This document shows, piece after piece, positions 6,838 to 24,769 of a DNA stretch of 39,085 nt. The notes under the pieces are model-generated. The model was not told the DNA's origin, did no database searches, and was given only the letters and a program-made list of their open reading frames with translations. Position 1 is the stretch's first letter; each line of letters opens with the position of its first letter. The DNA is taken from IMG/VR virus record IMGVR_UViG_3300032116_000060, positions 1 to 39,085 of that record, one strand, 5' to 3'. A program made the translations under genes and the position numbers. The stretch comes from a virus (Duplodnaviria; Heunggongvirae; Uroviricota; Caudoviricetes).

Positions 6838-7219
6838 TGGTGGAGGTGGAGGGAGTCGAACCCTCGTCCAAATACGGATTTAATAAACATCGTTCACAAG
6901 CTTAGTTTGTTTTTCTTAACAAACAAAATATTCGGTTGGTTCTTCACCATCGGCAACCGATAAACAATGGGTGATTCGATTTTGGGTTCAATCACTTTTT
7001 CACCTTTATAACTACTTCTGTTACTAAGCGTATGTAGTCCGGCTCTATTGTTTGATTAGGCTGCTACAGCGTAATCAGCACCAACGAATGCCATAGCATC
7101 TTCGAAGGTCATTGTAGATAATTCTACGTCATTTATTGTTCGATAGGTATTTACGGATTTCCATCTAACCCGGCTTGCAATTCACCAACTCATCGTACCT
7201 GTCAAAACCAGGCACCCCC
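6838..7219 (-). ncRNA. ssrA: tmRNA (382 nt)
   Basis: 5' GGGGGTG pairs with 3' CACCTCC-A-CCA, giving the G3-U70 alanine determinant and an encoded CCA. T-arm GAGGG-TTCGACT-CCCTC, 5' CCTGGTTTTGACAGG, and an internal tag ORF ending YAVAA*. Confidence 0.97.
7056..7130 (-). other. tmRNA tag reading frame DVELSTMTFEDAMAFVGADYAVAA*
   Basis: Resume codon GAC inferred from the upstream AATAAAT context; 24 codons to TAA. The stop and C-terminus are certain, the resume position is inferred. Confidence 0.75.
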
Positions 7220-7221
7220 AA

Positions 7222-8781
7222 TTACTTCTTATAAAATATAAATATAGGTTCGTATTTGTAAAACTCACCATTTATCTTCATACTATTTTTTACATTTGAT
7301 AAATCAACACCTGTCATTGGAGACATCGTCATCTTTATCTTACCCTTATATTCCATACCTAATTCAGTAAGTATATCAATACTATCTTGCTCTAATGGAT
7401 AAAAACTTTTACCAATTTTAATGTCCGCAATGTTCCAAAGAATATATCTATCATTTCGTAAGTATTCGTATGCGGTTGTTAAGGTAGGTCGTAAAAATCC
7501 ATCTCTCCAACTTTCATAATTACTAAATTTCTTAAATGATTGGGTTTCATCATCGGAATACCTTTCTCTATCAAAATATGGAGGTGAAGTAAATATAAAA
7601 TCTAATTGCCCTTTCCATTTTTGAAATCCAACCTCATTACTAATAATCTCACTACCCGTTCTATAAATCTCATAGGTATTTTTATGCCCCCAAAATGGAT
7701 TAGCCGCACCAGGTATACGCGAATTAAAAAACTCAGCCAAATACTCATAACGAGTCTTACCTATTTCCTCAATATAATTTTCAGTATTCGGATCATTCCC
7801 AATATAGTGAAGGTTTCTATCATCTACACTCAATGCCCCTAAAATTCTACCACCCCAACCGGATGATGGGTCATAAATGTTAATTTGCTTTTGCTCTTTA
7901 ATATGGTTTGTAAATCTTTGATACAAATACTTCGCAGTAAGTGGAGGAAAGTTTACGGCTGCCTGTGTTCCCATTCCAATTCTAAATGCCGCAGTTGCCT
8001 CCGGAAATATAGTTTGACCTAATGGATACCACTTTAATTGAATAGGTTGTTTTTCTAAATCAACTAATGAATCTATATCTTCGCCCCAATTAGCAGTTTT
8101 AAGAGATGAAATATGTTTATACTGAATTATACCCGCTTTGTATAACTCTTTAACTTCTTCCGCAGTAATCGGTAAGGATTCAATTCGGCTATCGGTTTGA
8201 GCCAAACAAAAATCATGCCCTTCCCATACATCACCACTCATCCATTTTTCAATCCATTCTTTTGCAGTTGGTAAATGTGAATTATGGTGTTCTTTATTTC
8301 CTTTTGCAAGAGTTTTTGAGAAACGATACATTGCATCTTGTCGAGTCAATCTCCTCATTTGTTTTGCAAATTCAGCGAGATATTCATCATTACAAAAAAT
8401 ATCGTAAATAGATGGTTTCGGTTTATCGTAAGTTGAACCACCGATACCCGTTTTATACATCGCAGGAAAGAACTGATTTACTGGTGTAGCAAATTTATTG
8501 AAATTAAAGATTACCTCATCACCGTCATCATCCTTTTCTTCGAACTTATCTACCTTATAGGTTTGTAATTTTGAAAATTGTTCAATAATCTCGGCTTCCG
8601 AAGAACCAATACGAGGAGGTGCACCCGTTTCATTCCAAACTTCAACAACCGTTTTTCTGAACATTGTCACCCAATCTTCAAATTCTTTAAGTGTCATTTT
8701 AAGAACATCTTCATACTTTAAGTTAATATGAGGTTCATTAAAATAATCACACTTTTCGTAAAAATACTTCTTTTCTGACAT
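7222..8781 (-). CDS. Amino (N6A/N4C) DNA methyltransferase-like protein with long N-terminal region (start revised to MSEKK at 8781)
   Basis: SAM-binding YDPSSGWGGR and catalytic FTSPPYF motifs. Confidence 0.8.
   Translation of the reverse strand: MSEKKYFYEKCDYFNEPHINLKYEDVLKMTLKEFEDWVTMFRKTVVEVWNETGAPPRIGSSEAEIIEQFSKLQTYKVDKFEEKDDDGDEVIFNFNKFATPVNQFFPAMYKTGIGGSTYDKPKPSIYDIFCNDEYLAEFAKQMRRLTRQDAMYRFSKTLAKGNKEHHNSHLPTAKEWIEKWMSGDVWEGHDFCLAQTDSRIESLPITAEEVKELYKAGIIQYKHISSLKTANWGEDIDSLVDLEKQPIQLKWYPLGQTIFPEATAAFRIGMGTQAAVNFPPLTAKYLYQRFTNHIKEQKQINIYDPSSGWGGRILGALSVDDRNLHYIGNDPNTENYIEEIGKTRYEYLAEFFNSRIPGAANPFWGHKNTYEIYRTGSEIISNEVGFQKWKGQLDFIFTSPPYFDRERYSDDETQSFKKFSNYESWRDGFLRPTLTTAYEYLRNDRYILWNIADIKIGKSFYPLEQDSIDILTELGMEYKGKIKMTMSPMTGVDLSNVKNSMKINGEFYKYEPIFIFYKK
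7237..7246 (-). promoter_or_regulatory. TATATTTATA motif inside the MTase 3' end, upstream of the tmRNA
   Basis: Exact match to the motif at 986, 14792 and 31651; ends 17 nt before the mature tmRNA 5' end. Confidence 0.45.
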
Positions 8782-8799
8782 TATGATTTTATTAGTATT

Positions 8800-8830
8800 C
8801 AAAGATACTAAAAAATTGTGTGATTTCCAA
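8800..8830 (-). promoter_or_regulatory. Bacteroidota-type promoter (T)TTGGA-N18-TATCTTTG
   Basis: Equivalent to TTTG-N20-TAnnTTTG. Confidence 0.75.
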
Positions 8831-8835
8831 ATAAA

Positions 8836-9861
8836 TTATTCTCTAATTGTATCTAATGTTACACAATGAGGGCCTCCACTAAAAGTTCTAGCGTGTCTCA
8901 TTTTGACAGGTATAGAATCCACTCCCCACTTTTTTAATTCTCTCATAAGTGGAATTTGTCGTTCTTCTACAATCATAGTGTTTTCATCGTAAGAAAGGGT
9001 GTTCATTCCCAACCACGGCGATGCTTCCGCCCAATGTTCTAGGAAAGGAGTGTCAACCATCTCAGGAGAGTAGATTTTATCCCATTTGCGAAAGACTTCT
9101 GGCATATTGGTATCATTTACCCTTTTAGGATTAAGTAAGACCAGTCCCTCTCTAATCAACACGAAAGTGGTATCAATATGGATGAATGCATATACATCTT
9201 GAATAGGATGAACTTTGTACTTTTCTTTCATGTTTTCATCCAACCATTTTTGTAAATATTGTGCACCTGCTAAGTTACCGGTATTGGAAACCAAATAGAT
9301 TATATCGTTATTACACTTTAACAGGTTAGCAGCATCAAATACAGGTTCTTCGTTCCCTAATGTTGGGCCAGGTAACAATCCCCTATCATAAATAGAATCC
9401 AATAATTTAGGTTTAGGAAAATCTACCCAATGGTTTTCATCGAAAAGGTGTTTAAATGCCCTCGCTTCATTTTGTCTTTGACGGAGAGCCATAGGTGTAG
9501 CAATTACTTTATCTTCTATAACTAACATAGAATCTCGTGGGCAATATCCATAATACCCATCTACTTCCCAATTTTCAGTTACATATTTTTCACTCCAATC
9601 AATTAAAGCGGGTCTGAATACTTCTACCCCTAACCCCTCTAATGTTTTACTTAAATCATCCAAATCTTCAATTGTTTCTTCAATCATCCAATTAGGATAT
9701 CTTCCATATGGAATACGAAGAAATTGTTCATCGGTGTAATTAGCATAATCAATTGTGTGTAGGGATTTATCTCTAACGGTTGGTATTTGTGCAAATTCAG
9801 GTCTTCCTACAATTATTTGTTTAAGTTTTCCCCATTCGTTTTTAATGTAAGGTTTTATCAT
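8836..9861 (-). CDS. Amidinotransferase (glycine/inosamine-phosphate amidinotransferase family)
   Basis: NEWGKLKQIIVG, YCPRD, VFDAAN, HIDT and C-terminal GGPHCVTLD, i.e. the Asp-His-Cys catalytic set. Confidence 0.92.
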   Translation of the reverse strand: MIKPYIKNEWGKLKQIIVGRPEFAQIPTVRDKSLHTIDYANYTDEQFLRIPYGRYPNWMIEETIEDLDDLSKTLEGLGVEVFRPALIDWSEKYVTENWEVDGYYGYCPRDSMLVIEDKVIATPMALRQRQNEARAFKHLFDENHWVDFPKPKLLDSIYDRGLLPGPTLGNEEPVFDAANLLKCNNDIIYLVSNTGNLAGAQYLQKWLDENMKEKYKVHPIQDVYAFIHIDTTFVLIREGLVLLNPKRVNDTNMPEVFRKWDKIYSPEMVDTPFLEHWAEASPWLGMNTLSYDENTMIVEERQIPLMRELKKWGVDSIPVKMRHARTFSGGPHCVTLDTIRE

Positions 9862-10403
9862 CTATCTCTTTTTTGTAATATTGGATTATTTGTAGGCCAT
9901 TCCATTTGAAACTCTGGATCATTCCACTTAACTACATATTGTTCATCTGCATCCACATAACCATCTTTATAAAATAGGTTATAGTGAAACATACAATCGG
10001 TTAGTGCATAATGTCCATTTGCAAATCCCGGCGGAACTAATACCTGATTTCTCAATCTTTCGGTTATAATGTATGATTCCCAATCTCCATAAGTTGGTGA
10101 ACCTTCTCTCATATCTAAAACAACCAAATATATATCACCTACTACCGCTTGAACTAATTTCCAAGTCTTTTTATCCCAATGTAATCCTCTTAATACACCT
10201 TTGTAAGAACGTGAAAATCTTCCATGTATTGAAAGTTCACTTTTATCATAATGTATGTGATTCATTACCGGATGCTGTTCCGAATGATATGTTGTCCATA
10301 TTTCACCTCTATACTCTCTGAATACCGATGGTTGAAATACCGGAACATCAAATCCAAATTTTTTTGATGGAGAAACTTGAAACTCATCCCATTTATTGCT
10401 CAT
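9858..10403 (-). CDS. rmlC: dTDP-4-dehydrorhamnose 3,5-epimerase family
   Basis: SYKGVLRGLH, VLDMREGSPTYG, VPPGFANGH and VKWNDP motifs. Confidence 0.9.
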   Translation of the reverse strand: MSNKWDEFQVSPSKKFGFDVPVFQPSVFREYRGEIWTTYHSEQHPVMNHIHYDKSELSIHGRFSRSYKGVLRGLHWDKKTWKLVQAVVGDIYLVVLDMREGSPTYGDWESYIITERLRNQVLVPPGFANGHYALTDCMFHYNLFYKDGYVDADEQYVVKWNDPEFQMEWPTNNPILQKRDR

Positions 10404-10407
10404 AACT

Positions 10408-11259
10408 TTAAATTAACTTACTTTTAGTATAATTATCTTTCATATATTTTTTAATGTTCATTATTGGTTCATTCACATCTTTAAAAGTAGAATACAAATT
10501 ATCATCGTATAACTTTAAAAAATCTTGATATACCGAATGATGGTATTTTGTGGTATGATGTAATAAATCTCTTGCTAAAAGTGATTCATCGTCTCTACCA
10601 TGCCATCCTCTACTACCTTCAATTACATAATAATTTGCTCCAATTTCACTTGCCAACCCTCTTATCGCCGAAGTGTTTTTATGCCAATTTAATTCAACTT
10701 GCTCATTAGTTAAAAGAGACTCTTTCATTAGATTACCAAATTTAGATTCCCAATTTTTATTATAGTTCGCGATAATATACCAGTGAGGTCTTCCATTTTC
10801 AATAAATTCATATCGAGGATACAATGGCGCATAATGGAATATATTTTTTATTTTAAGTTCTTTATAAAAAGCAAATAATAATCTAAAATGGGTATCCGTT
10901 CCTGTACCCCCTATTCCCAAATTCCAAAATTTACGACCTAATATTTTACTTAATTTATAAGACCATACATTTTCTAAATGATGACCTATTCCAAATGTAT
11001 GAGAACACCCTAAATAAACATCACCTTCATCATATGAATTAAAATCATCCGGAGTTCTAAATCCAGCATTATTTAGTTTGTATTCTATTGGATTTAATTC
11101 GTAATATTGAATACTGGGTTTATCCAGTTCTGAAATAATATGCCTATCCCAAAATTCCTTTGAATCAGTTGGTATATATTCATAAGTTTCATTCGGTTTT
11201 AAATTTAAATCATCTAATTCACATCTGTATTTTAGAATTTTATTTGTTAAATATTCCAT
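10408..11259 (-). CDS. SGNH/GDSL-like protein; C-terminus KSKLI
   Basis: LGCSHTFG block I, NLGIGG, and late RDLLHH. Confidence 0.6.
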   Translation of the reverse strand: MEYLTNKILKYRCELDDLNLKPNETYEYIPTDSKEFWDRHIISELDKPSIQYYELNPIEYKLNNAGFRTPDDFNSYDEGDVYLGCSHTFGIGHHLENVWSYKLSKILGRKFWNLGIGGTGTDTHFRLLFAFYKELKIKNIFHYAPLYPRYEFIENGRPHWYIIANYNKNWESKFGNLMKESLLTNEQVELNWHKNTSAIRGLASEIGANYYVIEGSRGWHGRDDESLLARDLLHHTTKYHHSVYQDFLKLYDDNLYSTFKDVNEPIMNIKKYMKDNYTKSKLI

Positions 11260-11260
11260 A

Positions 11261-11947
11261 TTAAATCAATGATTTTTTGAGTTTTATATTAGCTTTTCCA
11301 AAGTGTTTAATTGATTCAAATAATGTTTTAAGCTCACTATCTACAATTTTTAAATCAATCATAGATTTTTTAACAGCAATCCATATTATAATACCCTCCA
11401 TAGCACCAGGTAAATCGTAAGCCAATTTTTGATAAGGTCTAGTTTGCCTATCAATCTTTTCCCACCATTGAATAAAACTACGTTTTTTATCATTATCTTT
11501 TATATGCAAAACAAATTTACCTTCATGTATCAATTCTAAAGCATCATCGGTTACGGTAGTAAGAATAGATAAATAATCTTTCATATATTCCAACGATCCA
11601 TATACATCTCTCAATTCATCCAATCCAACTATTTTCGATGCATGAAATCCTTCATCTATATGATTCAGTATAAAAAAATCCGCATCACTTTTGATAAATG
11701 TATCTGTATCTAAAAAAAATAGTGTATCAAATTCAGTCAAAGCCTCCCCAATAACAATTCTTTTTAAATTGTAATTAAATGATTCCGATAATTTTATAAC
11801 CCTATAAACACCTTCGATAATTTTTGAAGGAGAATCAGTTCCGACTATTATTTTAAAATCCTTATCTAAATCCAATATAGATTTTGCAACTATATTAAAT
11901 TCATTAATATGTTCATCGCCGTATGCAAGAAAGCAAAAACAAAACAT
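11261..11947 (-). CDS. GT-A-like glycosyltransferase; C-terminus KKSLI
   Basis: FFLDTDTF DxD motif after KRIVIGEAL, with an N-terminal Rossmann-like strand-helix pattern. Confidence 0.55.
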   Translation of the reverse strand: MFCFCFLAYGDEHINEFNIVAKSILDLDKDFKIIVGTDSPSKIIEGVYRVIKLSESFNYNLKRIVIGEALTEFDTLFFLDTDTFIKSDADFFILNHIDEGFHASKIVGLDELRDVYGSLEYMKDYLSILTTVTDDALELIHEGKFVLHIKDNDKKRSFIQWWEKIDRQTRPYQKLAYDLPGAMEGIIIWIAVKKSMIDLKIVDSELKTLFESIKHFGKANIKLKKSLI

Positions 11948-12606
11948 TATATAATCTTATTTAAAGTATTTTGTATTCTAACCTTTTTAGTTTCAGATAA
12001 TATAAATTCATTATAATATGAATCTATTAAGTTTATTTCCAAATAATTAAATATTTTTTCTATCTCACCCTTTTTATAGGATTCGAATATATCTTCATAA
12101 TAAAAAATGGGTTGTTCACATTTGATTGATATACTAGATAGTAATTTAGCGGATGCCGTATATCTATCTACCATATTTTGAATATATAAAGAATCTATTT
12201 CTGCTATATTGTATTTTTTTGGAGTATGCCAATCTATGCCGTATTTTCTAAACATAGTTTCATTAAAAGCAAAACTTTCAGATTGTGCTAATTTATCAAT
12301 TCTATCCAATAAAATTATTTTATCGAAAAATGATATACACCAATCGAAATATGAATTCGAACTATTAAAAGATTTTAAAGGATACTCATTATTTTCAACT
12401 AATAGTAATGTTTTTACTAATAGATTATTACAATTTTGCAATGGTATAATAGTTTGAAAATCGAATCCTTTGTTTTTATACAATTGATAAAAGTTTGGAT
12501 TAAATGGTTCTATAAAAAGGGAATAATCCGGATTTAAATGTGCATTTATTAATTTAGTTAAAGAGGTAGAACCACTTCTAGGAGTAGCCAAAACTAAAAT
12601 TTTCAT
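11947..12606 (-). CDS. PAPS-dependent sulfotransferase; C-terminus LNKII
   Basis: LATPRSGSTSL (5'-phosphosulfate loop), LDRIDKLAQSES (3'-phosphate site) and FYYEDI. Confidence 0.8.
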   Translation of the reverse strand: MKILVLATPRSGSTSLTKLINAHLNPDYSLFIEPFNPNFYQLYKNKGFDFQTIIPLQNCNNLLVKTLLLVENNEYPLKSFNSSNSYFDWCISFFDKIILLDRIDKLAQSESFAFNETMFRKYGIDWHTPKKYNIAEIDSLYIQNMVDRYTASAKLLSSISIKCEQPIFYYEDIFESYKKGEIEKIFNYLEINLIDSYYNEFILSETKKVRIQNTLNKII

Positions 12607-13121
12607 AAAATTGATTTTTCTTGCATTCTAAATTTATGCAAAAACATAGCAATCGCCCATCTTTCACCACTTGTTATGGGAGTAACTTGATGAGGTGTCT
12701 GTGATTGATATATGCATACATTACCAATTTTTTTATTTATATAAATAGGATTATCGTTTTCATCAAAAATGAGATAATCCCCTCCCATAAAATTTTCGTT
12801 AAGAACAATACCTACATTCCATTCTTTTAAAGGTGATCCAGTATCTATGTGCTTACCAAATTCATCACCTATGGTATAATGATGTAAATTTAATTTTGTA
12901 GGTCGGGTATGGATTTTTAATTTAGTTTCATTTTCAAAAAAATCACACATTCTATTTATAATCCAATTTATATCATCTATAAATTCTAGTGCATAAAATT
13001 TATATTTGAAATTATCGAATATATCCCATCTACCATTATCACCCAACAGAGGATACTTATATTTTAAGTCAATAATATATTCACATTCCTCTTGTGAAAA
13101 TAAGATTGATTGATATAACAT
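12603..13121 (-). CDS. 2OG-Fe(II) oxygenase; C-terminus EKSIL
   Basis: KHID, GGD and PHQVTPITSGERW motifs. Confidence 0.9.
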   Translation of the reverse strand: MLYQSILFSQEECEYIIDLKYKYPLLGDNGRWDIFDNFKYKFYALEFIDDINWIINRMCDFFENETKLKIHTRPTKLNLHHYTIGDEFGKHIDTGSPLKEWNVGIVLNENFMGGDYLIFDENDNPIYINKKIGNVCIYQSQTPHQVTPITSGERWAIAMFLHKFRMQEKSIL

Positions 13122-13123
13122 AT

Positions 13124-13261
13124 TTAACTTAGATGTCTATCTTTAATTTTATTAACTACCGTTTGAATAGCAGCATTTACTTTTACTTTAGTATCATTAG
13201 ATAAAGCTACAATACTTGGCTTAATCGTTTGAATCGGTCTATTAATTCTTATATCTGACAT
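13124..13261 (-). CDS. 45-aa small protein (not in ORF track)
   Basis: MSDIRINRPIQTIKPSIVALSNDTKVKVNAAIQTVVNKIKDRHLS* fills the gap between the Hint gene and the next oxygenase. Confidence 0.75.
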   Translation of the reverse strand: MSDIRINRPIQTIKPSIVALSNDTKVKVNAAIQTVVNKIKDRHLS

Positions 13262-13273
13262 AATTAAATTATT

Positions 13274-14767
13274 TTAAAGTTTAGGGGGTTGGCCGCCTCC
13301 GCCACAACCCGAACAGGTGTTGTCATAACAATAGTTTCCACAATATGACCACGGACAATAACAACTATTGTGCATTACTGAAAAAACATCATCTCCGATA
13401 TCAACCAAAAAAAGGTCGGATGGCTCGAAATCCAATCCGTAAACCATCATTTGAGCGTGTTCCATTTCTAAATTAGTTATTTCTAATGTCGATAATTGTT
13501 GTGTATTAGAATCGGTTACAACTAATTTATCACCAATATACATTTGGTTTAGTTTTTCAAATCTTGTTGATGTTGAGCCGGATTCTTCAATATAGTATGT
13601 ACACGATGGAGAATCTACCCAACTTTTACCATCAGCTGTCGTTACCCTTATATAAATTGTATCTATTGATGAAGAAATAATTCCTTGTAAAGATGATGAT
13701 GTTTGAAGTAAGGTTTCATTGGATTTTGATAAACTACCACTCCATCCAAATACATTTAATTTACCTTCTTCAAAATTAGCAGCGTGATTATCGTTATAAT
13801 CTACAAAATCTATTGAACGAATATAATCTCCGATCTGTAAATCACTTGCATTAATAATTGAACCCGTATAATTAATAATTTTAGAGTCCATATCGGTGTG
13901 ATAACTTTCAATTTTTTGATTCACACCAACTTCCTTTGTGATGTATTTCTGTCTACTCTTTTGAATTAATTTTCTATCAGCAGTAAATTCATTAGCTATA
14001 AAATCAATTGGTATTACAGTGGATTGCTTATATCCACCCATACTGATTACTTCCAAATTACTACCATATATAACATCAATGCTTCTTATTATAGAATATT
14101 TATTATCCACTAAATTATCAGTTGAATATAAAAATTCTTGTATAAGGTATTCCGAAGTATTCGATGATTTTAATGAATCTAATTGAGATTGTGATTCTAA
14201 TGAATATATTGATGGATATAATGCAGTATCATAGCTAGGAGCCTGTGCTTTTACTATAACATTTGGTGTTCCATTGGTTTGAAAACTAACATTATTTAAT
14301 GTATCCATACTAACTTCAGATGAACTAAAATAAGTTTTTGGTATATATTGGCTACCGCTCATCAGTTCACAGAATCCAAATTTATCAGCACAATACGAGT
14401 CATCAATCAATGCTGTCGTATCATACGATTGTCTTAATATAAATTTAGTAGGAGAATCTTCTATATATGGTACCGTAACAGAATTAAAAGGAACGATGTA
14501 TTCATTAAAAGAAATGTTATTTTCATTACATTTTTGAACTAATTTTTCCTTAAATCGATATCTTTCATTAGATGGTGAATGGGAATCTCTTTCAGTATAT
14601 ATAAAATGAAATTCTGATATGTTATTCTGAACTAACATATCAAATAACCCATCATATTCCAATAGTTCAGCTCCAGGATTATAAATGGTTGTATTTGTAT
14701 TTATCTCTAAAATTTTTACATCATTATTGTATTCCAATAAATCTGAACCCAATATTATTGCTTTCAT
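13274..14767 (-). CDS. Circularly permuted ATP-grasp + Hint domain + C-terminal Cys-rich 30-aa peptide
   Basis: aa 1-289: N-terminal GSD...KILEINTN, then DKF...IPKTY, IVK, YLIQEF. aa 290-467: Hint-like TGSIINASDLQIGDYIRS, YIGDKL, VYGLDFEP and VMHN. aa 468-497: SCYCPWSYCGNYCYDNTCSGCGGGGQPPKL. Confidence 0.8.
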   Translation of the reverse strand: MKAIILGSDLLEYNNDVKILEINTNTTIYNPGAELLEYDGLFDMLVQNNISEFHFIYTERDSHSPSNERYRFKEKLVQKCNENNISFNEYIVPFNSVTVPYIEDSPTKFILRQSYDTTALIDDSYCADKFGFCELMSGSQYIPKTYFSSSEVSMDTLNNVSFQTNGTPNVIVKAQAPSYDTALYPSIYSLESQSQLDSLKSSNTSEYLIQEFLYSTDNLVDNKYSIIRSIDVIYGSNLEVISMGGYKQSTVIPIDFIANEFTADRKLIQKSRQKYITKEVGVNQKIESYHTDMDSKIINYTGSIINASDLQIGDYIRSIDFVDYNDNHAANFEEGKLNVFGWSGSLSKSNETLLQTSSSLQGIISSSIDTIYIRVTTADGKSWVDSPSCTYYIEESGSTSTRFEKLNQMYIGDKLVVTDSNTQQLSTLEITNLEMEHAQMMVYGLDFEPSDLFLVDIGDDVFSVMHNSCYCPWSYCGNYCYDNTCSGCGGGGQPPKL

Positions 14768-14791
14768 TTGTTACAATTATCTTTTTTCAAC

Positions 14792-14801
14792 TATAAATAT
14801 A
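14792..14801 (-). promoter_or_regulatory. TATATTTATA motif upstream of the ATP-grasp-Hint gene
   Basis: Lies in the 41-nt gap, the longest intergenic gap between 10408 and 21707. Confidence 0.55.
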
Positions 14802-14808
14802 TATAAAC

Positions 14809-15114
14809 TTAAATTATTGATTTTTCACGCTTATCCTCTATCTTTTCAATAAACCCATTATCACACTCTTCCCATTTTAGGAGTGGACAGCTATTATAAA
14901 TTTTAGTAAATATTTTTTTATTAAGGGGGCAGCCACACCCTTTACAATATTCAGACCACTTTTGATTTTTTATGACGGATTTTTTTAATTCACATTTTGA
15001 ACAAATAGAATACCTTCTTTCTGCTAATTTTTTCTCATCATCAGATGGGTTTCTGGCAGTTATCCATGCATTAAAAATTTCTTTATAATCGTATTTAATA
15101 CCATTTATTTTCAT
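14809..15114 (-). CDS. Cys-rich putative Zn-binding protein (DUF6171-like); C-terminus EKSII
   Basis: RYSICSKC...CKGCGCPL...K...SCPLLKW pattern. Confidence 0.7.
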   Translation of the reverse strand: MKINGIKYDYKEIFNAWITARNPSDDEKKLAERRYSICSKCELKKSVIKNQKWSEYCKGCGCPLNKKIFTKIYNSCPLLKWEECDNGFIEKIEDKREKSII

Positions 15115-15123: not shown

Positions 15124-15753
15124 CTATAATAAAGAATTTGTTTTTAGGGGTTTTGCAACAAAATTTAAATTAAGTATATATCTACTACCTTTAGTTGGAT
15201 AATTTGCGTGATGTGCATATCTCCCATCAAAAACTAAACATCTTCCCATTTTTGGAGAAATTTTAGTCAATAGTTCAAAAGAATCTAAATTTACATTATC
15301 AAAATTTTCCATATACGTCTCTGCGTTATCTCCAAATTTATTACGATAAATACACGTATCACCATCTATATCATTAATATAATATACTGCAGCAATATGT
15401 TCTGCTATTCTATCATAGTGTAATAAATCAATTGGGTTATACTCATAATTTAACGGAGATGTATGGTTAATTTTCCATCTGTAAGTGGTTACAAATTCTA
15501 ATCCTATTTTTTTGGATATAATACGTTGTATATTCTTAATTAGCTCATCTATTTGTTCGTTCTTACAGTCGATTTGAGGATGAACTTTTGCAGGAAATTT
15601 ATGTGTATTTTTTTTACCACCGTAATTTCCTGTTATATTCTCTGTTTCATTCCATTTAATCTCACTATTGTTCGCATAGTTATATAAGATTTTTTGCTCA
15701 TCTACTGATAGCAAATCGTCAAAAACTTCATATATTTTGTCGGAATAAAGCAT
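15124..15753 (-). CDS. 2OG-Fe(II) oxygenase-like; C-terminus TNSLL
   Basis: LHYD, VYYINDIDGDT and HHANYP...RYILNLNF motifs. Confidence 0.8.
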   Translation of the reverse strand: MLYSDKIYEVFDDLLSVDEQKILYNYANNSEIKWNETENITGNYGGKKNTHKFPAKVHPQIDCKNEQIDELIKNIQRIISKKIGLEFVTTYRWKINHTSPLNYEYNPIDLLHYDRIAEHIAAVYYINDIDGDTCIYRNKFGDNAETYMENFDNVNLDSFELLTKISPKMGRCLVFDGRYAHHANYPTKGSRYILNLNFVAKPLKTNSLL

Positions 15754-15754: not shown

Positions 15755-16543
15755 TTATATTAAGGTTTTAGTTGTTTTATGTAAATCATAGTAATCATAA
15801 ATACTATTATATTTGACAACAAAATTGTCATCTAATGGTAGATTTGTTTTTATATTTTTACTAGAATTTACATATTGTATTTTAAATGGTTTTTTAGTTT
15901 TATCAGATACCCATTTATCTAAATCTTGCAGTTTATCAAATTCAAACCATATTATATTTGGGTTATGATTTGTCCAAAAAGAAATCGGAGTTAATAGGAT
16001 ATCAATTAGATTAACCAGATAACCATTCTTTTCTTTCCAATAATTTTCTTCGTTTTTTCTACTTGATAAAGTTACGTTAATATCGACCGGTTGGTTAATT
16101 AATTTTAATTCAATTAGATAATCTGAAATTTTATCCCATCTCGTCTTTTTGCTAATTAAATCATCTTTTGTGAAAAAAAATAATTCATTCAAAGTAAAAT
16201 GGGAAAACGTATCATAAAAATCTAAATAACCCAATCGTTTAAAATCGGATAACATATGTTTGTAGAATGAATAGAAACGCTCATGTCTTTCTCTATTAAC
16301 CGCTATCACAGGAACATCAATACCAAATTTAGATTGTAAATCTGAAATGGTTTCATGTCCATGAAATATATGATTCATTAAATCTTCTTTTTCAATTGAA
16401 TTAAAATCAATATGTTCATTTGATACTTCCCATTCACCATTATTAGTTTTTACGCCAATATTATTTATAATACAAGAATAGTGAAACGAAGTAGATGCAC
16501 ATCTCGGTAAACTTAAATATATAAACTTATTATCTACTAGCAT
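15755..16543 (-). CDS. Sulfotransferase (family 2-like); C-terminus TKTLI
   Basis: FIYLSLPRCASTSF, NRERHERFYSFY and VNSS motifs. Confidence 0.75.
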   Translation of the reverse strand: MLVDNKFIYLSLPRCASTSFHYSCIINNIGVKTNNGEWEVSNEHIDFNSIEKEDLMNHIFHGHETISDLQSKFGIDVPVIAVNRERHERFYSFYKHMLSDFKRLGYLDFYDTFSHFTLNELFFFTKDDLISKKTRWDKISDYLIELKLINQPVDINVTLSSRKNEENYWKEKNGYLVNLIDILLTPISFWTNHNPNIIWFEFDKLQDLDKWVSDKTKKPFKIQYVNSSKNIKTNLPLDDNFVVKYNSIYDYYDLHKTTKTLI

Positions 16544-17112
16544 TATAATAGTGATTTGGTAACATTTTTAGATGGCCAAACATTTAAGGAATACCTATTT
16601 CTATTTTCTATCTTTTTGACAGAGTGACTTATATTAGAATCAAATATAAAAACGCTACCTATTTTCTTATTAATCGTATAAATGTTATTATCTATATTAT
16701 ATTGTATTTCACCTCCATCATAATCATCATTTAGTTGAATTATAAATGTAATCGTAGCTCCATTTAGTATTTCATGACTGTCAGAATGCCAATCTAAAAA
16801 ATCTCCTACACCATATTTGTTAAAAGAGTATTTTTTAATATAGCTGTATTCTATTCCTTTAAATGGATTTAAATTATTTGATAAATTAATAATTTTATTT
16901 GTCAGGCTTTTTACAATAGGTAAATCAAGTTGTTCATTGAGAAAATAACACCCTAATCTTTTATTACCTGCATATTCCAGGTTTTCACCAACTAATTCTC
17001 CATTGACAAATTTTGAAGATTTCATTTGGATTAAATCAATTGAATTGCCCAAATTAATTAAAGAAATACATTCATCTTCGTTTAAAAAATTTTCAATATA
17101 GCTTGCAAACAT
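16543..17112 (-). CDS. 2OG-Fe(II) oxygenase; C-terminus TKSLL
   Basis: WHSD, YDGGE and SHSVKK...RYSLNVW motifs. Confidence 0.9.
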   Translation of the reverse strand: MFASYIENFLNEDECISLINLGNSIDLIQMKSSKFVNGELVGENLEYAGNKRLGCYFLNEQLDLPIVKSLTNKIINLSNNLNPFKGIEYSYIKKYSFNKYGVGDFLDWHSDSHEILNGATITFIIQLNDDYDGGEIQYNIDNNIYTINKKIGSVFIFDSNISHSVKKIENRNRYSLNVWPSKNVTKSLL

Positions 17113-17753
17113 TATATTATTGATTTTTCTTTTTTAATATATTCAAACCCAACATTCCCCGCTAATACTATTCTATCAATAGTTGAATTAGGAGCGTTGT
17201 TTGGAGAATGAGGCATATCTGCTTCCATTATGATTAAATCATCCTCTTCAGGTCTAATCCAATACTCTTGACCATCTTTACCTTTAAAATATAATACACC
17301 ATCTTCTCCATTCATTACATCTGGCATTTGAATATAATAAACATAGGTATAGGATGGTGGAAATGATTTTGTTTTTTTATTGATTTCAGTATGAATATGA
17401 AACTTTTGATTATCATCGTAAAAGTTTGGTTGAATTGGATCTATAGATCTAACTACATTTACCCAAGCATCAATATTAATTTTATTAAAAGGTAAGTTAT
17501 TTGTAGTGTAAAGTTCTTTACATAAATCTATGCCATTTTGAATAACTTCATCTAATTTACTTTTAATCTCAATTTTACCTATAAAATTTAAATTATTATT
17601 CCATTCCTTTTTATATCCAAATCCATCAGTTTTGACACCAGGTTGAGAGTCAATAACTGAATAGGCTTCTTTTAGAAATAATGATTTATCGGTTAATTTA
17701 TTTAGTTTTGTTTTCCAAATAAAAGTGGTATCATTAAAATATAACTTTTCCAT
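17112..17753 (-). CDS. 2OG-Fe(II) oxygenase-like; C-terminus EKSII
   Basis: FHIH, YVYYIQMP and PHSP...RIVLAGN motifs. Confidence 0.75.
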   Translation of the reverse strand: MEKLYFNDTTFIWKTKLNKLTDKSLFLKEAYSVIDSQPGVKTDGFGYKKEWNNNLNFIGKIEIKSKLDEVIQNGIDLCKELYTTNNLPFNKINIDAWVNVVRSIDPIQPNFYDDNQKFHIHTEINKKTKSFPPSYTYVYYIQMPDVMNGEDGVLYFKGKDGQEYWIRPEEDDLIIMEADMPHSPNNAPNSTIDRIVLAGNVGFEYIKKEKSII

Positions 17754-18994
17754 TAAATTAATTCTTTTTTTAATACTTTTTTATTTTTTCTAAAAATAGT
17801 TTGATAATTGTGTGTAAAGAATGTCAACATATTTTGTGGAGTTTCTACTAAATCAAAGGATTTCAATAAATCTCTATCGTTTTTGATAATAATGTTGTTA
17901 TCTTTATCTAGTATTTGTTTCAATTTTTTTGGAATTGGTTTATTATATGCATCAATCCAAAATTTGTTATCCAATCTTTCCGCTAAATAGTGGTATCTAA
18001 CAAACATCATATTTTGCTCATTAATTTCTTCACACCATTTATTGAACCCATCTTTATAATTTTCATCAAAGTTTTTATCAACCAATCTTTTAAGTTGCAT
18101 AATAGTCGACATCAACGATGTTGCTTCTAATGGTTCTATAAACCCATATGATAATCCTATTGATATAGAGTTACCAATCCAACTTCTTTTATATCTACCT
18201 GGATTATAACTAAACACTTTTTGAATTTCTATTTCATGCCCTAAATAGTCTTCAACTTCTTTTTTCGCATCTTCTACTGTTATATAATCTTTATTAAAAG
18301 AATAGCCACATCCCCATCTGTGTTGTAGTTCAATTTGCCACATCCACCCACAACTCATAGCAACCATATTTGTATATGTCTTATCTTTAATTGTAAGTTT
18401 TTTATTTTGAGGTAGGAAAAATGCAATGCTACTATTAATCATTAAATATTTTGAATAATCAACCCATTCCTCATTAAATAGATTTCCAACTAATCTATTA
18501 AATCCACTACAGTCAAAAACAAAATCAGAACTAATTATTCTATCATCTACTAATTTGAAACTTTTAATAAACTCACCTGTATTATTAATTGTTTCTATTT
18601 CCCCATCAATCCAATTAACACCCCTATCTATTGCTATTTGTTTAAAGTAATCTGCAACTTTTCTTGCATCAAAATGATAACCAAATGATTTTGTAAAAAC
18701 AGTTGGCTCTTCACCTGTAAATAAATGTTTTGCTGTGCTACCATCTCCAAGCCAATTTATTAAGTTTAGCCCACGCTTATTTGTAGCACCTGTTTTTTCA
18801 TAAAAATCTTTTTGATTTATACCTAATAATGATAAAATTCTACCGAAGTTTGGTGTGCTTCCTTCGCCCGCTCCTAGTATTCCTATTTTGGAACTTTCTA
18901 CCAATGTTACATTTGTATTTTCCCAAAATTTATTTACTATTAGAGCAGTAAGCCATCCAGCAGTCCCACCTCCGATTATGATTATTTTTTTCAT
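17753..18994 (-). CDS. Flavin-dependent (tryptophan-halogenase family) halogenase; C-terminus KKELI
   Basis: IIGGGTAGW, GAGEGS, GATNKRG (catalytic Lys position), DCSGF, GWMWQIEL (WxWxI) and FIEPLEATS. Confidence 0.9.
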   Translation of the reverse strand: MKKIIIIGGGTAGWLTALIVNKFWENTNVTLVESSKIGILGAGEGSTPNFGRILSLLGINQKDFYEKTGATNKRGLNLINWLGDGSTAKHLFTGEEPTVFTKSFGYHFDARKVADYFKQIAIDRGVNWIDGEIETINNTGEFIKSFKLVDDRIISSDFVFDCSGFNRLVGNLFNEEWVDYSKYLMINSSIAFFLPQNKKLTIKDKTYTNMVAMSCGWMWQIELQHRWGCGYSFNKDYITVEDAKKEVEDYLGHEIEIQKVFSYNPGRYKRSWIGNSISIGLSYGFIEPLEATSLMSTIMQLKRLVDKNFDENYKDGFNKWCEEINEQNMMFVRYHYLAERLDNKFWIDAYNKPIPKKLKQILDKDNNIIIKNDRDLLKSFDLVETPQNMLTFFTHNYQTIFRKNKKVLKKELI

Positions 18995-19551
18995 TATAAT
19001 AATGTTTTCTTATAATTTTTTTGTGTTTCTAATTCCAACCAATTAACAATTGAATACCTAACTCCATTTTTAATTTCTTTAATTCTATGTTTAGTTAAAG
19101 ATGAAAATGCAAATAAATTACCTATTCCTTTTTTTAACGAATATACCTTACCATCAATTTCTAACTCTAATTCACCTCCTTCATATTCATCGTTAAGTTG
19201 AATTACAATTGTTAAAATTCGTTGATTATATACATCATCTGAAGAATCGGTGTGCCAATTAAAATAATCTCCATTTTGGTATTTAGTAAATTGATAGTTT
19301 GAAATTTTGAAATTGTATCCTTTTATACCAAAGTATTCTTTTAGCTTTTTAATAATTCTATCATTAAGTTCTTCCAAATCGATTCCCGCAACTTTAGATT
19401 TTCTTTTACTAACATCAATAACATTATTCATTAATTTACTATCATACACTTCCGCTATTTTTAAAACCGATTCATTTACACACTTATTAAGTATCTGATT
19501 ACATTCTTCTTTAGAGAATACATTTTCGAAAACTTTAAATTTACCAATCAT
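18994..19551 (-). CDS. 2OG-Fe(II) oxygenase (start revised to MIGKF at 19551); C-terminus KKTLL
   Basis: WHTD, YEGGEL and HRIKEIKNGVRYSIVNW motifs. Confidence 0.9.
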   Translation of the reverse strand: MIGKFKVFENVFSKEECNQILNKCVNESVLKIAEVYDSKLMNNVIDVSKRKSKVAGIDLEELNDRIIKKLKEYFGIKGYNFKISNYQFTKYQNGDYFNWHTDSSDDVYNQRILTIVIQLNDEYEGGELELEIDGKVYSLKKGIGNLFAFSSLTKHRIKEIKNGVRYSIVNWLELETQKNYKKTLL

Positions 19552-20066
19552 ATTAAAGAAAATTTTGATTGTTTTTTTGAAAACCAAACAATTAATACCT
19601 CTCGATTTCCTTTTGTAATCGGCTTTACTTCATGAAAATCATTACCACCAAAGAAACTTACATATTCACCGTTTGTATTTAATTGTATCTTTTTATCATT
19701 TACATACATATCCCCTCCCTCAAATTCATCTGATAAAATTATACTTACCGTTTTATGTGTTGCATATCTATCTTTATGTTTTTTCGCAAAATCACCTACA
19801 CCATAGATGTGTTTATGTATCATATACAAATACTCAATGGGTTCTTCTAATTTCTCACATAAAAAGTTGTTAAGATTTTTGTTTTTTAATGAATATATTA
19901 TAGAATTTTCGGTAATAAGAGCCACATCATCCCCTTTTTCTCCAATATATGTGGAATAAAGTTGAGAATGTGCAGATTTTACGAACTTAATTTCATCATC
20001 ATTCATCAATGGAGTTATTTCCAATTGAGATTTTAAATACAAAAAATCATCTAACAATAATTTCAT
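19548..20066 (-). CDS. 2OG-Fe(II) oxygenase; C-terminus KFSLI
   Basis: KHKD, FEGGD and HEVKPITKGNREVLIVW motifs. Confidence 0.9.
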   Translation of the reverse strand: MKLLLDDFLYLKSQLEITPLMNDDEIKFVKSAHSQLYSTYIGEKGDDVALITENSIIYSLKNKNLNNFLCEKLEEPIEYLYMIHKHIYGVGDFAKKHKDRYATHKTVSIILSDEFEGGDMYVNDKKIQLNTNGEYVSFFGGNDFHEVKPITKGNREVLIVWFSKKQSKFSLI

Positions 20067-20686
20067 ATTATTTTATTTGTTTTAGATTGAAAGGCCACTA
20101 AATCATCTTTTATATCTAAAAAGGTATGCATTTTTTTATAAAATTCATAGCAACCTTTCCAACCAGGATGCCAATCCATAGGATCACCTCCTTCATCTGC
20201 AATCGAAGTAACCTGAATCAACTCAACAAAATCAGAAGTCATCTTATGAAAATCTTCATTCCAGGTCACAAATACCGGAGAAAAATCATTATACAACTCT
20301 TTAAGTTTTTTTAAAAATAGTATTTCATTATTTCTTTCACCATTTAACCAATGTGATGTTTCGGATAATCTAACTTCTAATAATTTTTTTGCAAATTGTT
20401 TATCTTTATACCATTCCCAATTAAAATATTTTATATGATGATGTGTTTCTCTTTCCCCAAAAAATCTTCTTGGAAATCTACCTGGTGCACTAAATACAAT
20501 CACTAATCTATCACCATATTCGTATTTTGGAATTAAACCTGTTTGATAAAGAATAGAATGATTATCCGCGCCAAATTTTCCTAACTTAATAACATTGTAG
20601 TGATTGGATAAATAATTAGTCCAATGAGTTTCAGGCATATCCCAATCTACAAAACTATCACCGCAAATGTAAATGCTAGGTTTCAT
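20063..20686 (-). CDS. SGNH/GDSL-like protein (start revised to MKPSIY at 20686); C-terminus TNKII
   Basis: ICGDSF, GADN and MDWHPG motifs. Confidence 0.65.
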   Translation of the reverse strand: MKPSIYICGDSFVDWDMPETHWTNYLSNHYNVIKLGKFGADNHSILYQTGLIPKYEYGDRLVIVFSAPGRFPRRFFGERETHHHIKYFNWEWYKDKQFAKKLLEVRLSETSHWLNGERNNEILFLKKLKELYNDFSPVFVTWNEDFHKMTSDFVELIQVTSIADEGGDPMDWHPGWKGCYEFYKKMHTFLDIKDDLVAFQSKTNKII

Positions 20687-20687
20687 A

Positions 20688-20903
20688 TTAATTATCCTTT
20701 TTAAGGCCAAACTTTATCCACTTATACCAAACTCTTTCGTGAAGATAATACTGAATAGGTTTATAGATTAATTCTGCTACACCAAATGCTGCACCAACTT
20801 TAATTGAGCCACTTACCCACCACATAATACCAAACCCTATTAGAGTTGAAACTATTCGATATGATATAGTTTTAGCTATGTGCCTCTTTCTCTCTACTAT
20901 CAT
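20688..20903 (-). CDS. DUF2061-like small membrane protein
   Basis: RHIAKTISYRIVST...YYLHERVW pattern. Confidence 0.85.
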   Translation of the reverse strand: MIVERKRHIAKTISYRIVSTLIGFGIMWWVSGSIKVGAAFGVAELIYKPIQYYLHERVWYKWIKFGLKKDN

Positions 20904-21279
20904 CGTTATCTATATTATAAACAATTACATCACCGTTAGAATCGATGTATTTTTTTCTAATCGCAGTTCCGCTTATGGCTTCGATTTCTTTCGGAGGAGT
21001 ATGATATATTACCTCATATCCAACTGCTCTACCATAGTTTACCGATTCGATATCTGGTATCACACTTATGTATATTTTCTTTGAGTTTTCTACAAAAAAA
21101 GGTTCTTTACACAAATCCATTAAAACCTGATGAGCAGACTTAGGATTGTTCTCATCTTTCGGAACATCTCTAATTGCTACCCAAACATCTTTCCCTTTAT
21201 CCAATTGTTGGCGGATTAACCATTCGTGTCCGGCGTGCCAAGTCTGCCACCTTCCAATAAACATTGCATATTTTTTCAT
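20872..21279 (-). CDS. HxGH nucleotidyltransferase (cytidylyltransferase-like)
   Basis: FIGRWQTWHAGH and the late ISGTAIR motif. Confidence 0.8.
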   Translation of the reverse strand: MKKYAMFIGRWQTWHAGHEWLIRQQLDKGKDVWVAIRDVPKDENNPKSAHQVLMDLCKEPFFVENSKKIYISVIPDIESVNYGRAVGYEVIYHTPPKEIEAISGTAIRKKYIDSNGDVIVYNIDNDDSREKEAHS

Positions 21280-21707
21280 ATTAGTGATTTTAATCTTTGA
21301 AATGTTGTAAACTCATCCTCATCTGTCGTATCTACATCTATAAAGTTTTTCAACGGCGGTTCGTAGTTAGAAACGTGAAACGATTCTCTACCCCTTATAT
21401 CGGTAGTATGAACATATAATTCTTTTATATTCTCACCCATTTCGGTTTTAAATGCTTCTCTTTGGTCTCTATAAGGAGAAACTAATGAGACAATTGCCAC
21501 ATTACCTTTGTGGTGAAAAAACTTAGCCATTCGTTGAGCAAGTTCTATGTTCTTTCTCCTTCCTGCTTCGGAGTAATCTTTATTATCAAATATGGCCCTT
21601 ATATCATCTCCATCGATTACCATACCCCTCTCCCTAAAATGAGCTTGAAACCAATTTGCTAATGTAGTTTTCCCCGCACCTGGCTGACCCGTAAACCAAT
21701 ATATCAT
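21276..21707 (-). CDS. cysC: Adenylyl-sulfate kinase; C-terminus LKSLI
   Basis: WFTGQPGAGKTT, DGDDIR, SLVSPYRDQR and YEPP motifs. Confidence 0.92.
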   Translation of the reverse strand: MIYWFTGQPGAGKTTLANWFQAHFRERGMVIDGDDIRAIFDNKDYSEAGRRKNIELAQRMAKFFHHKGNVAIVSLVSPYRDQREAFKTEMGENIKELYVHTTDIRGRESFHVSNYEPPLKNFIDVDTTDEDEFTTFQRLKSLI

Positions 21708-23917: not shown

Positions 23918-24769
23918 TTACATAGTTTCCTCTAATGTAAAGAATTCTTTTATATTTTCCAAATCTGGCTGAGAAAAACTTTCACCTAAAACGATTTGTT
24001 CTTCTAATTCATATCTTTCTAGTATTCGTTTCACTATTCCACTTCTTACACAATCCTCTTTTGAGAACTCTACTTGATAAATCCCCTCTACTCCACTCAA
24101 TCTTTTCCATATATCATAGAATCCACTTTTCTGATAAGCAGGTATCCCATTTGCTCTAAATTTATCACATTGGGATAGGTCTCCACATATTACCATCTTA
24201 CTATTATCAGCAATACGCGTTACGAGGGTTTTTAATTGGGCAGGAGAAGCGTTCTGTGCCTCGTCCATAAAAATGTATGTATTCGAAAAGTTCATCCCTC
24301 TAAGGAAGTTTAAAACCTTAAATTCCAACTTACCGATTTCAATCAATCTCGTTGTTTCCTTTTCCCCTACTATTTTATGAAGTATTCCTATTGAAGATTC
24401 GTTATGATATGCTATCTTTTCCATCAAATCACCCGGTAAGTGTCCGAGCTTATCTTCGTTACCAACATCGACCGTTGGGTTTATAATAACCATTTTATAA
24501 AAACCGCTATTTCTTTGATAAAGTAACTCTATTCCTTTTTGTATTCCCACAAATGTTTTTCCAGCTCCCGCTAATGCGTGTGCCATAACTATTTGATTTT
24601 TTTGGGATTCTATTGCCTTATAAAATCTCTTTTGATTTCTTGTCTTAAATTCTATTGGTGTAATTAGTTTCGGTATTCCTCCAATTTTGTTTTCTAGTAT
24701 TTCTTCAATTGTGTTGGTAACTTCTGAATCAACAGTTTTTCGTAATGCTTTGGTTCTTACTTTCGGCAT
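23918..24769 (-). CDS. phoH: PhoH-family ATPase
   Basis: AGAGKT, GHLPGD, FLRGMNF, DEAQN, GDLSQCD and DCVRSGIV motifs. Confidence 0.92.
   Translation of the reverse strand: MPKVRTKALRKTVDSEVTNTIEEILENKIGGIPKLITPIEFKTRNQKRFYKAIESQKNQIVMAHALAGAGKTFVGIQKGIELLYQRNSGFYKMVIINPTVDVGNEDKLGHLPGDLMEKIAYHNESSIGILHKIVGEKETTRLIEIGKLEFKVLNFLRGMNFSNTYIFMDEAQNASPAQLKTLVTRIADNSKMVICGDLSQCDKFRANGIPAYQKSGFYDIWKRLSGVEGIYQVEFSKEDCVRSGIVKRILERYELEEQIVLGESFSQPDLENIKEFFTLEETM

Follow-up and report, generated by a model that had tools for sequence, protein, structure and literature searches.

What do the halogenases and oxygenases that some phages encode in arrays act on, and what is done by a short C-terminal tail that such enzymes can share? 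Phage dioxygenase/halogenase arrays (Syn9 and others) have been known since 2010, when Iyer et al. described them and left their substrate open (PMC2938197). We analysed a 39,085-nucleotide stretch of DNA from a large uncultured Caudoviricetes virus (IMG/VR record IMGVR_UViG_3300032116_000060, positions 1 to 39,085; hereafter the window), which is part of a 103-kb contig. In the middle of such an array it carries a candidate substrate, fused to a predicted ligase and to a predicted self-cutting domain. Two genes in region 13274-15114, both on the minus strand, form the core of the locus: a precursor that combines an ATP-grasp ligase, a Hint domain and a Cys-rich peptide, and a small protein with six conserved cysteines (the Cys6 protein). 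They lie amid genes for halogenating, hydroxylating and sulfating enzymes, many of which end in the same tail. An earlier reading of this DNA (the original prediction) had proposed that the ligase joins the carboxylate of that tail to the alpha-amine created when the Hint domain releases the peptide. The features of the core are as follows.

13274-14767, minus strand: precursor of 497 amino acids, with a ligase domain (residues 1-280), a Hint domain (residues 286-467) and a 30-residue peptide
13928-14767, minus strand: predicted ATP-grasp amide-ligase domain, residues 1-280 of the precursor, assigned from its fold, motif spacing and invariant residues
13367-13912, minus strand: predicted Hint domain, residues 286-467 of the precursor, assigned from a fold match, a profile match to the KlbA intein and its His-Asn end
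13277-13366, minus strand: predicted releasable peptide of 30 residues, with six Cys, rich in Trp, Tyr and Pro, with one Lys at -2; a low-confidence part of the structural model
14809-15114, minus strand: Cys6 protein of 101 amino acids with a flexible tail, K-S-I-I; adjoins the precursor and matches phrog_13558

The precursor combines a predicted ligase with a Hint domain

Searches of the precursor against Pfam, PHROG and NCBIfam returned no match. Its AlphaFold model, built on 59 relatives, has a predicted local distance difference test score (pLDDT) of 88 and a predicted template modelling score (pTM) of 0.84; only the last 27 residues are unconfident (pLDDT <50). Two structure searches, by Foldseek and by VIA Z-scores, agree on its two domains. 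Residues 1-280 align with YgiC bound to ADP (VIA Z 10.0, 202 residues aligned, root-mean-square deviation (rmsd) 4.2), GspS (Z 9.3), glutathione synthetases (Z 7.1-8.8) and Cp1B (Z 7.8), and more weakly with TTLL11 (Z 6.7) and with LysX and RimK (both Z 6.0); Foldseek finds YjfC at E 3.6e-6. On the model, this domain is a predicted ATP-grasp ligase of the GspS/YgiC type. Known ligases of the GspS, YgiC, YjfC and Cp1B type join the carboxylate of a peptide or an acid to an amine (PMC12568646), and in the case of peptides it is the C-terminal carboxylate that they activate.

Residues D9, E21, N23, R112, D122 and R228 of the ligase domain are invariant in all 268 non-redundant precursors, and K173 is kept in 267 of them. 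The D9-x11-E21-x-N23 spacing is the same as that of D318, E330 and N332 in E. coli GspS (12+2), and the motif sits where the fold alignment begins (GspS 311 onward). In the structure paper on GspS these three residues are reported to bind Mg. The Mg and ATP roles of the ligase residues were assigned by analogy, from motif spacing and fold rather than by residue-level superposition. A dead ATP-grasp site would have counted against the original prediction; this refutation fails, the candidate catalytic residues being invariant in the 268 relatives, and judged from its sequence the ligase looks active.

The second domain has the fold of proteins that cut themselves. Residues 286-469 superpose on a bacterial intein-like (BIL) domain of C. 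thermocellum (2lwy; Z 15.8, rmsd 1.9, 136 of 138 residues aligned), and further matches are to Tetrahymena BIL2 (Z 15.6), inteins (Z 12-15.6) and hedgehog (1at0; Z 15.0). The Pfam Hint models do not match the window's domain; the family profile finds the KlbA intein by sequence (E = 2.7e-6). At the C-terminal end, His466 is kept in 253 and Asn467 in 258 of the 268 relatives (~95%). Position 290, which aligns with intein residue 1 and with Cys258 of hedgehog, is His in the window's precursor, and its equivalents across the same relatives are H, S, T, I, G, L or D, with no Cys among them. Nor is the +1 residue, directly behind the Asn, conserved: besides S it can be Y, G, A, P, V, T, F or another residue, with Pro in 12 of 151 cores. 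We reject a splicing intein, for which a Cys, Ser or Thr at position 1 and a nucleophile at +1 would be needed: position 1 is His in the window's precursor, and the +1 residue varies.

The domain thus appears to have lost its N-terminal nucleophile and to be able to cut only at its C-terminal end, after the last Asn. It is established for inteins that cyclisation of the Asn suffices to cut the C-terminal junction, even where the preceding steps of splicing do not take place. Because the His-Asn pair is kept and this cyclisation alone can cut that junction, the prediction of a releasable peptide is well founded. The layout agrees with the original prediction on this point: the Hint domain ends in His466-Asn467, and the 30-residue six-Cys peptide follows on the same polypeptide as the ligase.

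The predicted released peptide keeps a lysine, in most cases just one

The residue directly after Asn467 is the Ser that opens the peptide. We compared the window's locus with 212 related viral loci, which fall into five clades and have precursors that share 25-99% identity with that of the window, and counted lysines in 128 non-redundant released peptides of at most 75 residues, taking the expectation from their own composition. None of the 128 lacks Lys, against 39 expected, and 107 (84%) have exactly one, against 45 expected. Lys makes up 3.3% of the released peptides and 8.1% of the proteins of the loci. The position of the Lys depends on the clade: it lies in K-[LIVA]-COOH in the window's clade (clade A), in a mid-peptide Cys-[Pro/Gly]-Lys in another, and in Gly-Lys-[Glu/Ala]-COOH in the marine one. 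Four relatives (P0046, P0049, P0061 and P0100) have no Cys-rich peptide, and what follows their His-Asn is a C-flank of 5-9 residues in which the Lys is retained.

Many clade-A peptides contain neither Asp nor Glu. An internal lactam is therefore impossible in those peptides, and ligation of the lysine would need an outside carboxylate. For the same reason an internal lactam of the graspetide type, made through the lysine, is unlikely in the window's clade. We consider the lysine a better amine candidate than the N-terminus made by the Hint domain, since a linear join would just copy a gene fusion.

A C-terminal tail marks the enzymes around the precursor

Fourteen minus-strand genes between 10408 and 21707 encode proteins that end in two Leu/Ile residues, mostly preceded by Ser/Thr/Lys and Lys. 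In addition to the Cys6 protein and to an APS kinase discussed below, they are the following.

17753-18994, minus strand: Trp-halogenase homologue, tail K-E-L-I (PF04820, 2.7e-84)
15755-16543, minus strand: putative sulfotransferase, tail K-T-L-I (a P-loop-like motif only, with no Pfam match)
11947-12606, minus strand: sulfotransferase-like protein, tail N-K-I-I (PF00685, 9.8e-5)
12603-13121, minus strand: 2-oxoglutarate (2OG)-Fe(II) oxygenase, tail K-S-I-L (PF13640, 5.9e-10)
15124-15753, minus strand: 2OG-Fe(II) oxygenase-like protein, tail N-S-L-L (PF13640, 2.4e-4, under the curated cut-off)
16543-17112, minus strand: 2OG-Fe(II) oxygenase, tail K-S-L-L (PF13640, 1.8e-12)
17112-17753, minus strand: 2OG-Fe(II) oxygenase-like protein, tail K-S-I-I (PF13640, 9.9e-5)
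18994-19587, minus strand: 2OG-Fe(II) oxygenase, tail K-T-L-L (PF13640, 3.2e-14)
19548-20066, minus strand: 2OG-Fe(II) oxygenase, tail F-S-L-I (PF13640, 8.2e-6)
20063-20710, minus strand: protein with an SGNH-like GDSF motif (seen by eye) and no assigned function, tail N-K-I-I
10408-11947, minus strand: two tailed proteins of 283 and 228 amino acids without family match, at the island edge, which are present in just one other locus

We counted such ends along the whole 103-kb contig, where the island comprises 22 genes and the remainder 152 open reading frames (ORFs). An [IL][IL] end is found in 14 of the 22 island genes and in 5 of the 152 others (Fisher p = 1.9e-11), which confirms that 14 island proteins share a free C-terminus, as the original prediction had claimed. 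The tail logo is K-x-x-K-[STK]-[LI]-[IL]-COOH (K at -7 and -4, T/S/K at -3, L/I at -2, I/L at -1), always placed at the extreme C-terminus. All five clades share it, although identity between their precursors is only 25-50% and their peptides are unrelated.

The tail is also tied to the position of the precursor. Across 63 clade-A loci, 85-100% of the genes between offsets -5 and +4 (counted from the precursor) carry it, against fewer than 10% beyond +/-8, and in the gene listings of the other clades it likewise clusters round the precursor. The Ser at -3 is encoded by AGY in 80 cases and by TCN in 142, and tailed genes may overlap their neighbour or end more than 60 nt before it, 249 of 731 lying 6 to >60 nt away. 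Because both Ser codon families are used and the gap to the next gene varies, the tail is a feature of the peptide and not of the DNA.

Orthologues of the modifying enzymes carry the tail with few exceptions. It is present in 62 of 62 Trp halogenases (62 loci), in 82 of 82 sulfotransferase-like proteins related to 15755-16543 (75 loci) and 59 of 60 related to 11947-12606, in 39 of 39 oxygenases related to 12603-13121, and in 91 of 98 homologues of oxygenase 16543-17112. For the oxygenase-like protein 17112-17753, 54 of 67 orthologues are strictly tailed and the remainder have near-tails. Two further stretches of the island hold genes that supply a cofactor, 3'-phosphoadenosine 5'-phosphosulfate (PAPS), or that lack the tail.

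20688-21707, minus strand: cofactor-supply genes, namely a 71-amino-acid ORF, a nucleotidyltransferase-like protein and an adenosine 5'-phosphosulfate (APS) kinase (APS_kinase, 7.1e-19)
13124-13261, minus strand: untailed micro-ORF of 45 amino acids, directly after the precursor, conserved by tblastn

The PAPS-supply trio lies within the island and is conserved in 28-38 loci. Its nucleotidyltransferase-like protein has weak NMNAT/cytidylyltransferase matches and is possibly a minimal ATP sulfurylase. The tail is found on 0 of 37 orthologues of the 71-amino-acid ORF, on 0 of 38 of the nucleotidyltransferase-like protein and on 1 of 28 of the APS kinase. The window's own APS kinase (21276-21707, minus strand) ends in L-K-S-L-I; since 27 of the 28 orthologues elsewhere have no tail, this one is probably a chance coincidence. 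The tail is thus on the modifying enzymes and not on the PAPS-supply genes, and it therefore marks proteins whose expected substrate is a macromolecule. As for the micro-ORF, it is lysine-rich and Cys-free and ends in K-H-L-S, and tblastn places it at the same position in 78 of 80 clade-A loci.

Phages with comparable arrays and no precursor have no tail. Pelagibacter phage HTVC008M and cyanophage S-RIM44, which are cultured T4-like phages with halogenase/oxygenase arrays, carry it on 0 of 27 neighbouring genes, a comparison confounded by their other host phyla, and no precursor homologue was found in array phages of this type by tblastn against INPHARED.

The Cys6 protein is the universal tail-bearer

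The 101-amino-acid protein at 14809-15114 combines its six conserved Cys with the C-terminus K-S-I-I. Of 208 loci, 197 have a homologue, which adjoins the precursor (position -1 or +1) in 168, and the tail dominates the C-terminal ends of these homologues; no other tail-bearer is universal. Minimal marine-type loci (L166-L176) lack tailoring enzymes in the vicinity, and no protein but the Cys6 protein bears the tail there consistently. Since these loci keep the precursor and the tailed Cys6 protein, the minimal system is that pair, which is exactly the span 13274-15114. The AF2 model of the Cys6 protein has a pLDDT of 85 overall and of 57-61 in the tail. Its Atlas look-alikes are all viral "hypothetical proteins".

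A proposed model in which the tail docks and one tail is ligated

Together, these features suggest a model in which the precursor would be a fusion of enzyme and substrate, consisting of a GspS-type ligase, a C-cutting Hint domain and a one-lysine Cys-rich peptide, and in which the tail would be a handle with a free carboxylate, read by the precursor's ligase domain. First, the tailed halogenase, 2OG oxygenases and sulfotransferase-like proteins would bind one after another and modify the peptide while it is still attached, with the sulfotransferase-like enzymes fed by the co-encoded PAPS synthesis. Second, the ligase would form one amide bond between a tail carboxylate and a peptide amine. 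The prime candidates are the Cys6 protein for the carboxylate and the single lysine for the amine, with the new alpha-amine as the alternative; a lysine isopeptide is favoured because its branched product cannot be encoded by a gene fusion. Third, Asn cyclisation in the Hint domain would free the product.

This sequence of docking, tailoring, ligation of the Cys6 tail to the core lysine, and release is our best model, held tentatively and with a confidence clearly short of even. Its observed basis is the two folds, the residues that do not vary, the joint occurrence of tail and precursor, the restriction of the tail to certain proteins, and the rule of one lysine. What we infer from them is that the ligase domain binds the tail, every chemical step, and the order of the steps. 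The idea that the tail is the carboxylate for the ligase is coherent because a ligase for carboxylates and amines, a free and conserved tail at the C-terminus, and one conserved amine fit one another chemically. The preconditions of the original prediction are supported, by the type of ligase, its invariant residues, a C-terminal tail tied to the precursor, and the lack of the tail where the precursor is missing; the pairing with the alpha-amine is not supported. All the parts needed for tail-to-peptide ligation appear to be present in sequence and model, and the ligation chemistry proposed from them would be coherent.

In its general form, the proposal is a phage ATP-driven conjugation in which the free C-terminal carboxylate of tailed proteins would be joined to the peptide's single lysine (or to its new N-terminus) and the conjugate then cut loose; we regard this as possible, with the chances against it. 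Such a conjugation would be an analogue of ubiquitin-type tagging free of E1, E2 and E3, in which the targets, and not the modifier, supply the carboxylate. For the many tailed enzymes, transient docking via the same handle would be a more economical role than ligation. In BUBL BIL2 of Tetrahymena, the C-terminus of the N-flank is joined to a Lys(epsilon) of the C-flank by an isopeptide bond without ATP (PMC8616854), which by analogy would offer a Hint precedent for joining a tail to a lysine.

Several results weigh against the model. An hhalign comparison of the precursor family with E. coli GspS gave a probability of 0.1%, and because this profile comparison found nothing, the ligase assignment rests on fold and motif. 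In the released peptides, all charged residues are scarce, not Lys alone. The halogenase occurs almost exclusively with the Trp-rich CWCPW clade, a pairing that fits the peptide as its substrate, but the link is confined to one clade and is therefore confounded by phylogeny. The Cys6 model found nothing among folds of the Protein Data Bank by Foldseek and at best Z 3.1 by VIA; a LysW-like fold has no support from either search, though absence of a match is not proof. Rare tail-less fusions, of Cys6 to a 2OG oxygenase or of Cys6 at the C-terminus of a protein of about 400 amino acids of unassigned type (P0151; P0152; an Atlas cluster of ~397 amino acids), fit an adaptor role better than that of a ligated carrier. 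A ligase that accepts any tail would ligate the enzymes too, and both the binding and the ligation step are our deductions.

The strongest rival, itself doubtful, is pure docking: the tail would serve just to bring the Cys6 protein and the tailoring enzymes to the precursor, much as HbYX tails, EEVD and PDZ ligands do for their receptors, and the ligase would have a different task on the peptide, for instance the addition of an amine or an amino acid, or the acylation of its lysine by a small carboxylate. Docking of this kind fits a multi-step tailoring pathway and the presence of the tail on peptide-acting enzymes and its absence from cofactor-supply genes, and the tail-less Cys6-oxygenase fusions suggest the adaptor role that it calls for. 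However, it leaves the universal free carboxylate, the lysine and the carboxylate-amine ligase unconnected, and the ligase could not turn to an internal lactam in the many clade-A peptides without acidic residues. The minimal loci, which have no enzymes to recruit, still keep a tailed Cys6 protein.

Alternatively, the tail could direct sorting, packaging or degradation and be recognised by something else than the precursor, such as a protease or chaperone of the host, a receptor of a capsid or compartment (of the PTS1 or encapsulin-cargo kind), or another phage protein. A C-terminal tripeptide on many unrelated enzymes is the hallmark of PTS1-type signals, an S74 tail-fibre chaperone domain in some relatives hints at a link to the virion, and the tail-less control phages infect other host phyla, so that host specificity is a confounder. 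We nevertheless judge this reading unlikely. Within loci the tail is restricted to the block round the precursor, and one tail logo is found across clades from different environments. The phage's own transfer-messenger RNA (tmRNA) tag ends in the usual Ala-Ala degron and not in the tail. The conserved untailed partners found besides the precursor, the micro-ORF and the PAPS-supply genes, are restricted to clade A, and none spans all clades.

The exact form of the original prediction, in which the tail carboxylate of each tagged protein is joined to the Hint-made alpha-amine to give linear conjugates ~3 kDa heavier, fares worse still and we consider it improbable. It can call on an active-looking GspS-type ligase and on a strictly C-terminal tail that co-occurs with the precursor, and it gives a simple rationale for fusing a ligase to a Hint domain that makes an N-terminus. 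Dassa et al. are said to have found in 2004 that BIL domains without a +1 nucleophile join their flanks by aminolysis of the freed amine. Yet its product would be identical to a gene fusion, which makes the machinery superfluous; the +1 residue is variable and at times Pro; each precursor yields a single peptide, which could not be shared out among up to 14 enzymes that would be expected to work one after another; and the conserved amine is the Lys inside the peptide. Joining of the tail to the alpha-amine on all 14 proteins is for these reasons the part of the original prediction that is not supported.

Finally, an artefact at the DNA level, by which translational coupling or a cassette junction at stop/start overlaps of an A+T-rich genome would produce the tail, is hardly conceivable and is rejected: many tailed genes do overlap or abut the next start, and Ile and Leu codons are the commonest in DNA of 30% G+C, but the Ser codons switch families, about a third of the tailed genes are spaced from their neighbours as given above, the PAPS-supply genes of the same overlapping operon are untailed, and [IL][IL] ends are rare in the contig outside the island.

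Relation to known systems

The closest Hint folds are those of BIL domains (2lwy) and of BUBL BIL2 (6tmm/6y75), and there as here Hint domains are used for autoprocessing, not homing. BIL2, however, uses a Cys1 thioester, whereas the window's domain has His at that position, which varies among the relatives, an ATP-grasp ligase as its N-flank, and flanks that are not ubiquitin-like. The PT-HINT domains of polymorphic toxins also stand directly before a variable C-terminal module thought to be released; here that module is a 30-residue Cys-rich peptide accompanied by tailoring enzymes, and there it is a toxin domain with an immunity gene.

The ligase shares its fold (Z 7.8-10.0) and an early D...E-x-N metal motif with GspS, YgiC, YjfC, eukaryotic glutathione synthetase and Cp1B. 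It differs from the GspS clade in being fused to a Hint domain and to its presumed substrate, and no sequence-profile relation to that clade was detected. In LysW/LysX, RimK and TTL/TTLL systems, the substrate of an ATP-grasp ligase is a protein's C-terminal tail, and LysW is moreover a small zinc-binding protein whose downstream enzymes work on a tethered substrate. Their tails, in contrast, are acidic and a Glu carboxylate is ligated, whereas the phage tail, K-[ST]-[LI]-[LI], is basic and hydrophobic.

As in systems for peptides that are made by the ribosome and modified after translation (RiPPs), including graspetides, a ribosomal precursor with a core peptide is encoded beside tailoring enzymes, and the non-core part would be removed. 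The 'leader' is here a 467-residue enzyme-Hint unit that would remove itself, the enzymes would be recognised by their tail where RiPPs have a leader read by a RiPP recognition element (RRE), and the ligase differs in type from the RimK-like one of graspetides. Among modifiers of the Ub, Pup or BUBL kind, none with a beta-grasp or a likeness to Pup was seen in the locus. The likeness to those conjugation systems is in a possible way of working only; the carboxylate tails sit on the enzymes and the Cys6 protein, and the conserved single Lys is in the peptide.

Cyanophage arrays and phages with VirX1-type halogenases likewise string together 2OG oxygenases, Trp-halogenase homologues and sulfotransferases, but without the ligase-Hint precursor and without the tail. 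Short free-carboxylate motifs of three to five residues on unrelated proteins are known from the peroxisomal targeting signal PTS1 (-SKL), HbYX of proteasome activators, EEVD of TPR co-chaperones and PDZ ligands; the phage motif is different and is confined to one gene block. If our reading is right, a four-residue tail that marks exactly the enzymes of one substrate would be a new principle of recruitment or conjugation, and the tail could be a portable handle for engineering. If the ligase does join tails to the peptide lysine, branched conjugates of protein and peptide could be made in a new way. The system is of a size that allows reconstitution in E. coli.

Distribution, long forms and further genes of the window

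The precursor family is large and unannotated: clustering at 50% identity leaves 263 representatives, relatives were confirmed in more than 390 stretches of viral contigs, on contigs of up to 335 kb, and source records name the family's proteins "hypothetical". A two-pattern scan of 185,579 cellular genomes (one per prokaryote species) gave a single weak match, on a 5-kb contig of a metagenome-assembled genome, and is weak evidence of absence. Neither blastn of region 13274-15114 nor tblastn of the precursor found a relative among INPHARED phages. The family occurs almost only in viral sequence. In the literature we found no description of a ligase-Hint fusion, of the tail or of a Hint-based RiPP, and the ligase-Hint fusion goes unmentioned in a jumbo-phage survey of 2021.

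Long forms of the precursor (P0004, P0008, P0129; P0041, P0058) continue after the peptide with one or two extra canonical Hint domains or with an S74 endosialidase-chaperone domain (PF13884). The extra Hint has Cys1 and matches PT-HINT (PF07591) and Intein_splicing, and the few residues that follow it begin with or include Lys-Lys. Judged from these sequences, the C-terminus of the peptide is predicted to be freed in three ways across the relatives, and the S74 domain, known from tail-fibre chaperones, makes a link to the virion possible. The Hint-peptide-Hint layout resembles BUBL and SICLOPPS.

Elsewhere in the window, ARAGORN predicts the phage tmRNA at 6838-7219 (minus strand), with a 24-residue tag ending in Y-A-V-A-A, the usual degron. 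PhoH is encoded at 23918-24769, and a low-complexity protein of 576 amino acids with Lys-Leu-Pro-type repeats, a Gly/Ala-rich N-terminus and no family match at 25215-26945 (minus strand). The flanks of the island (7222-10403 and 32184-33515, both minus strand) hold two DNA-methyltransferase-like genes (phrog_498/12517), a gene of the amidinotransferase/arginine-deiminase fold and an RmlC-like epimerase.

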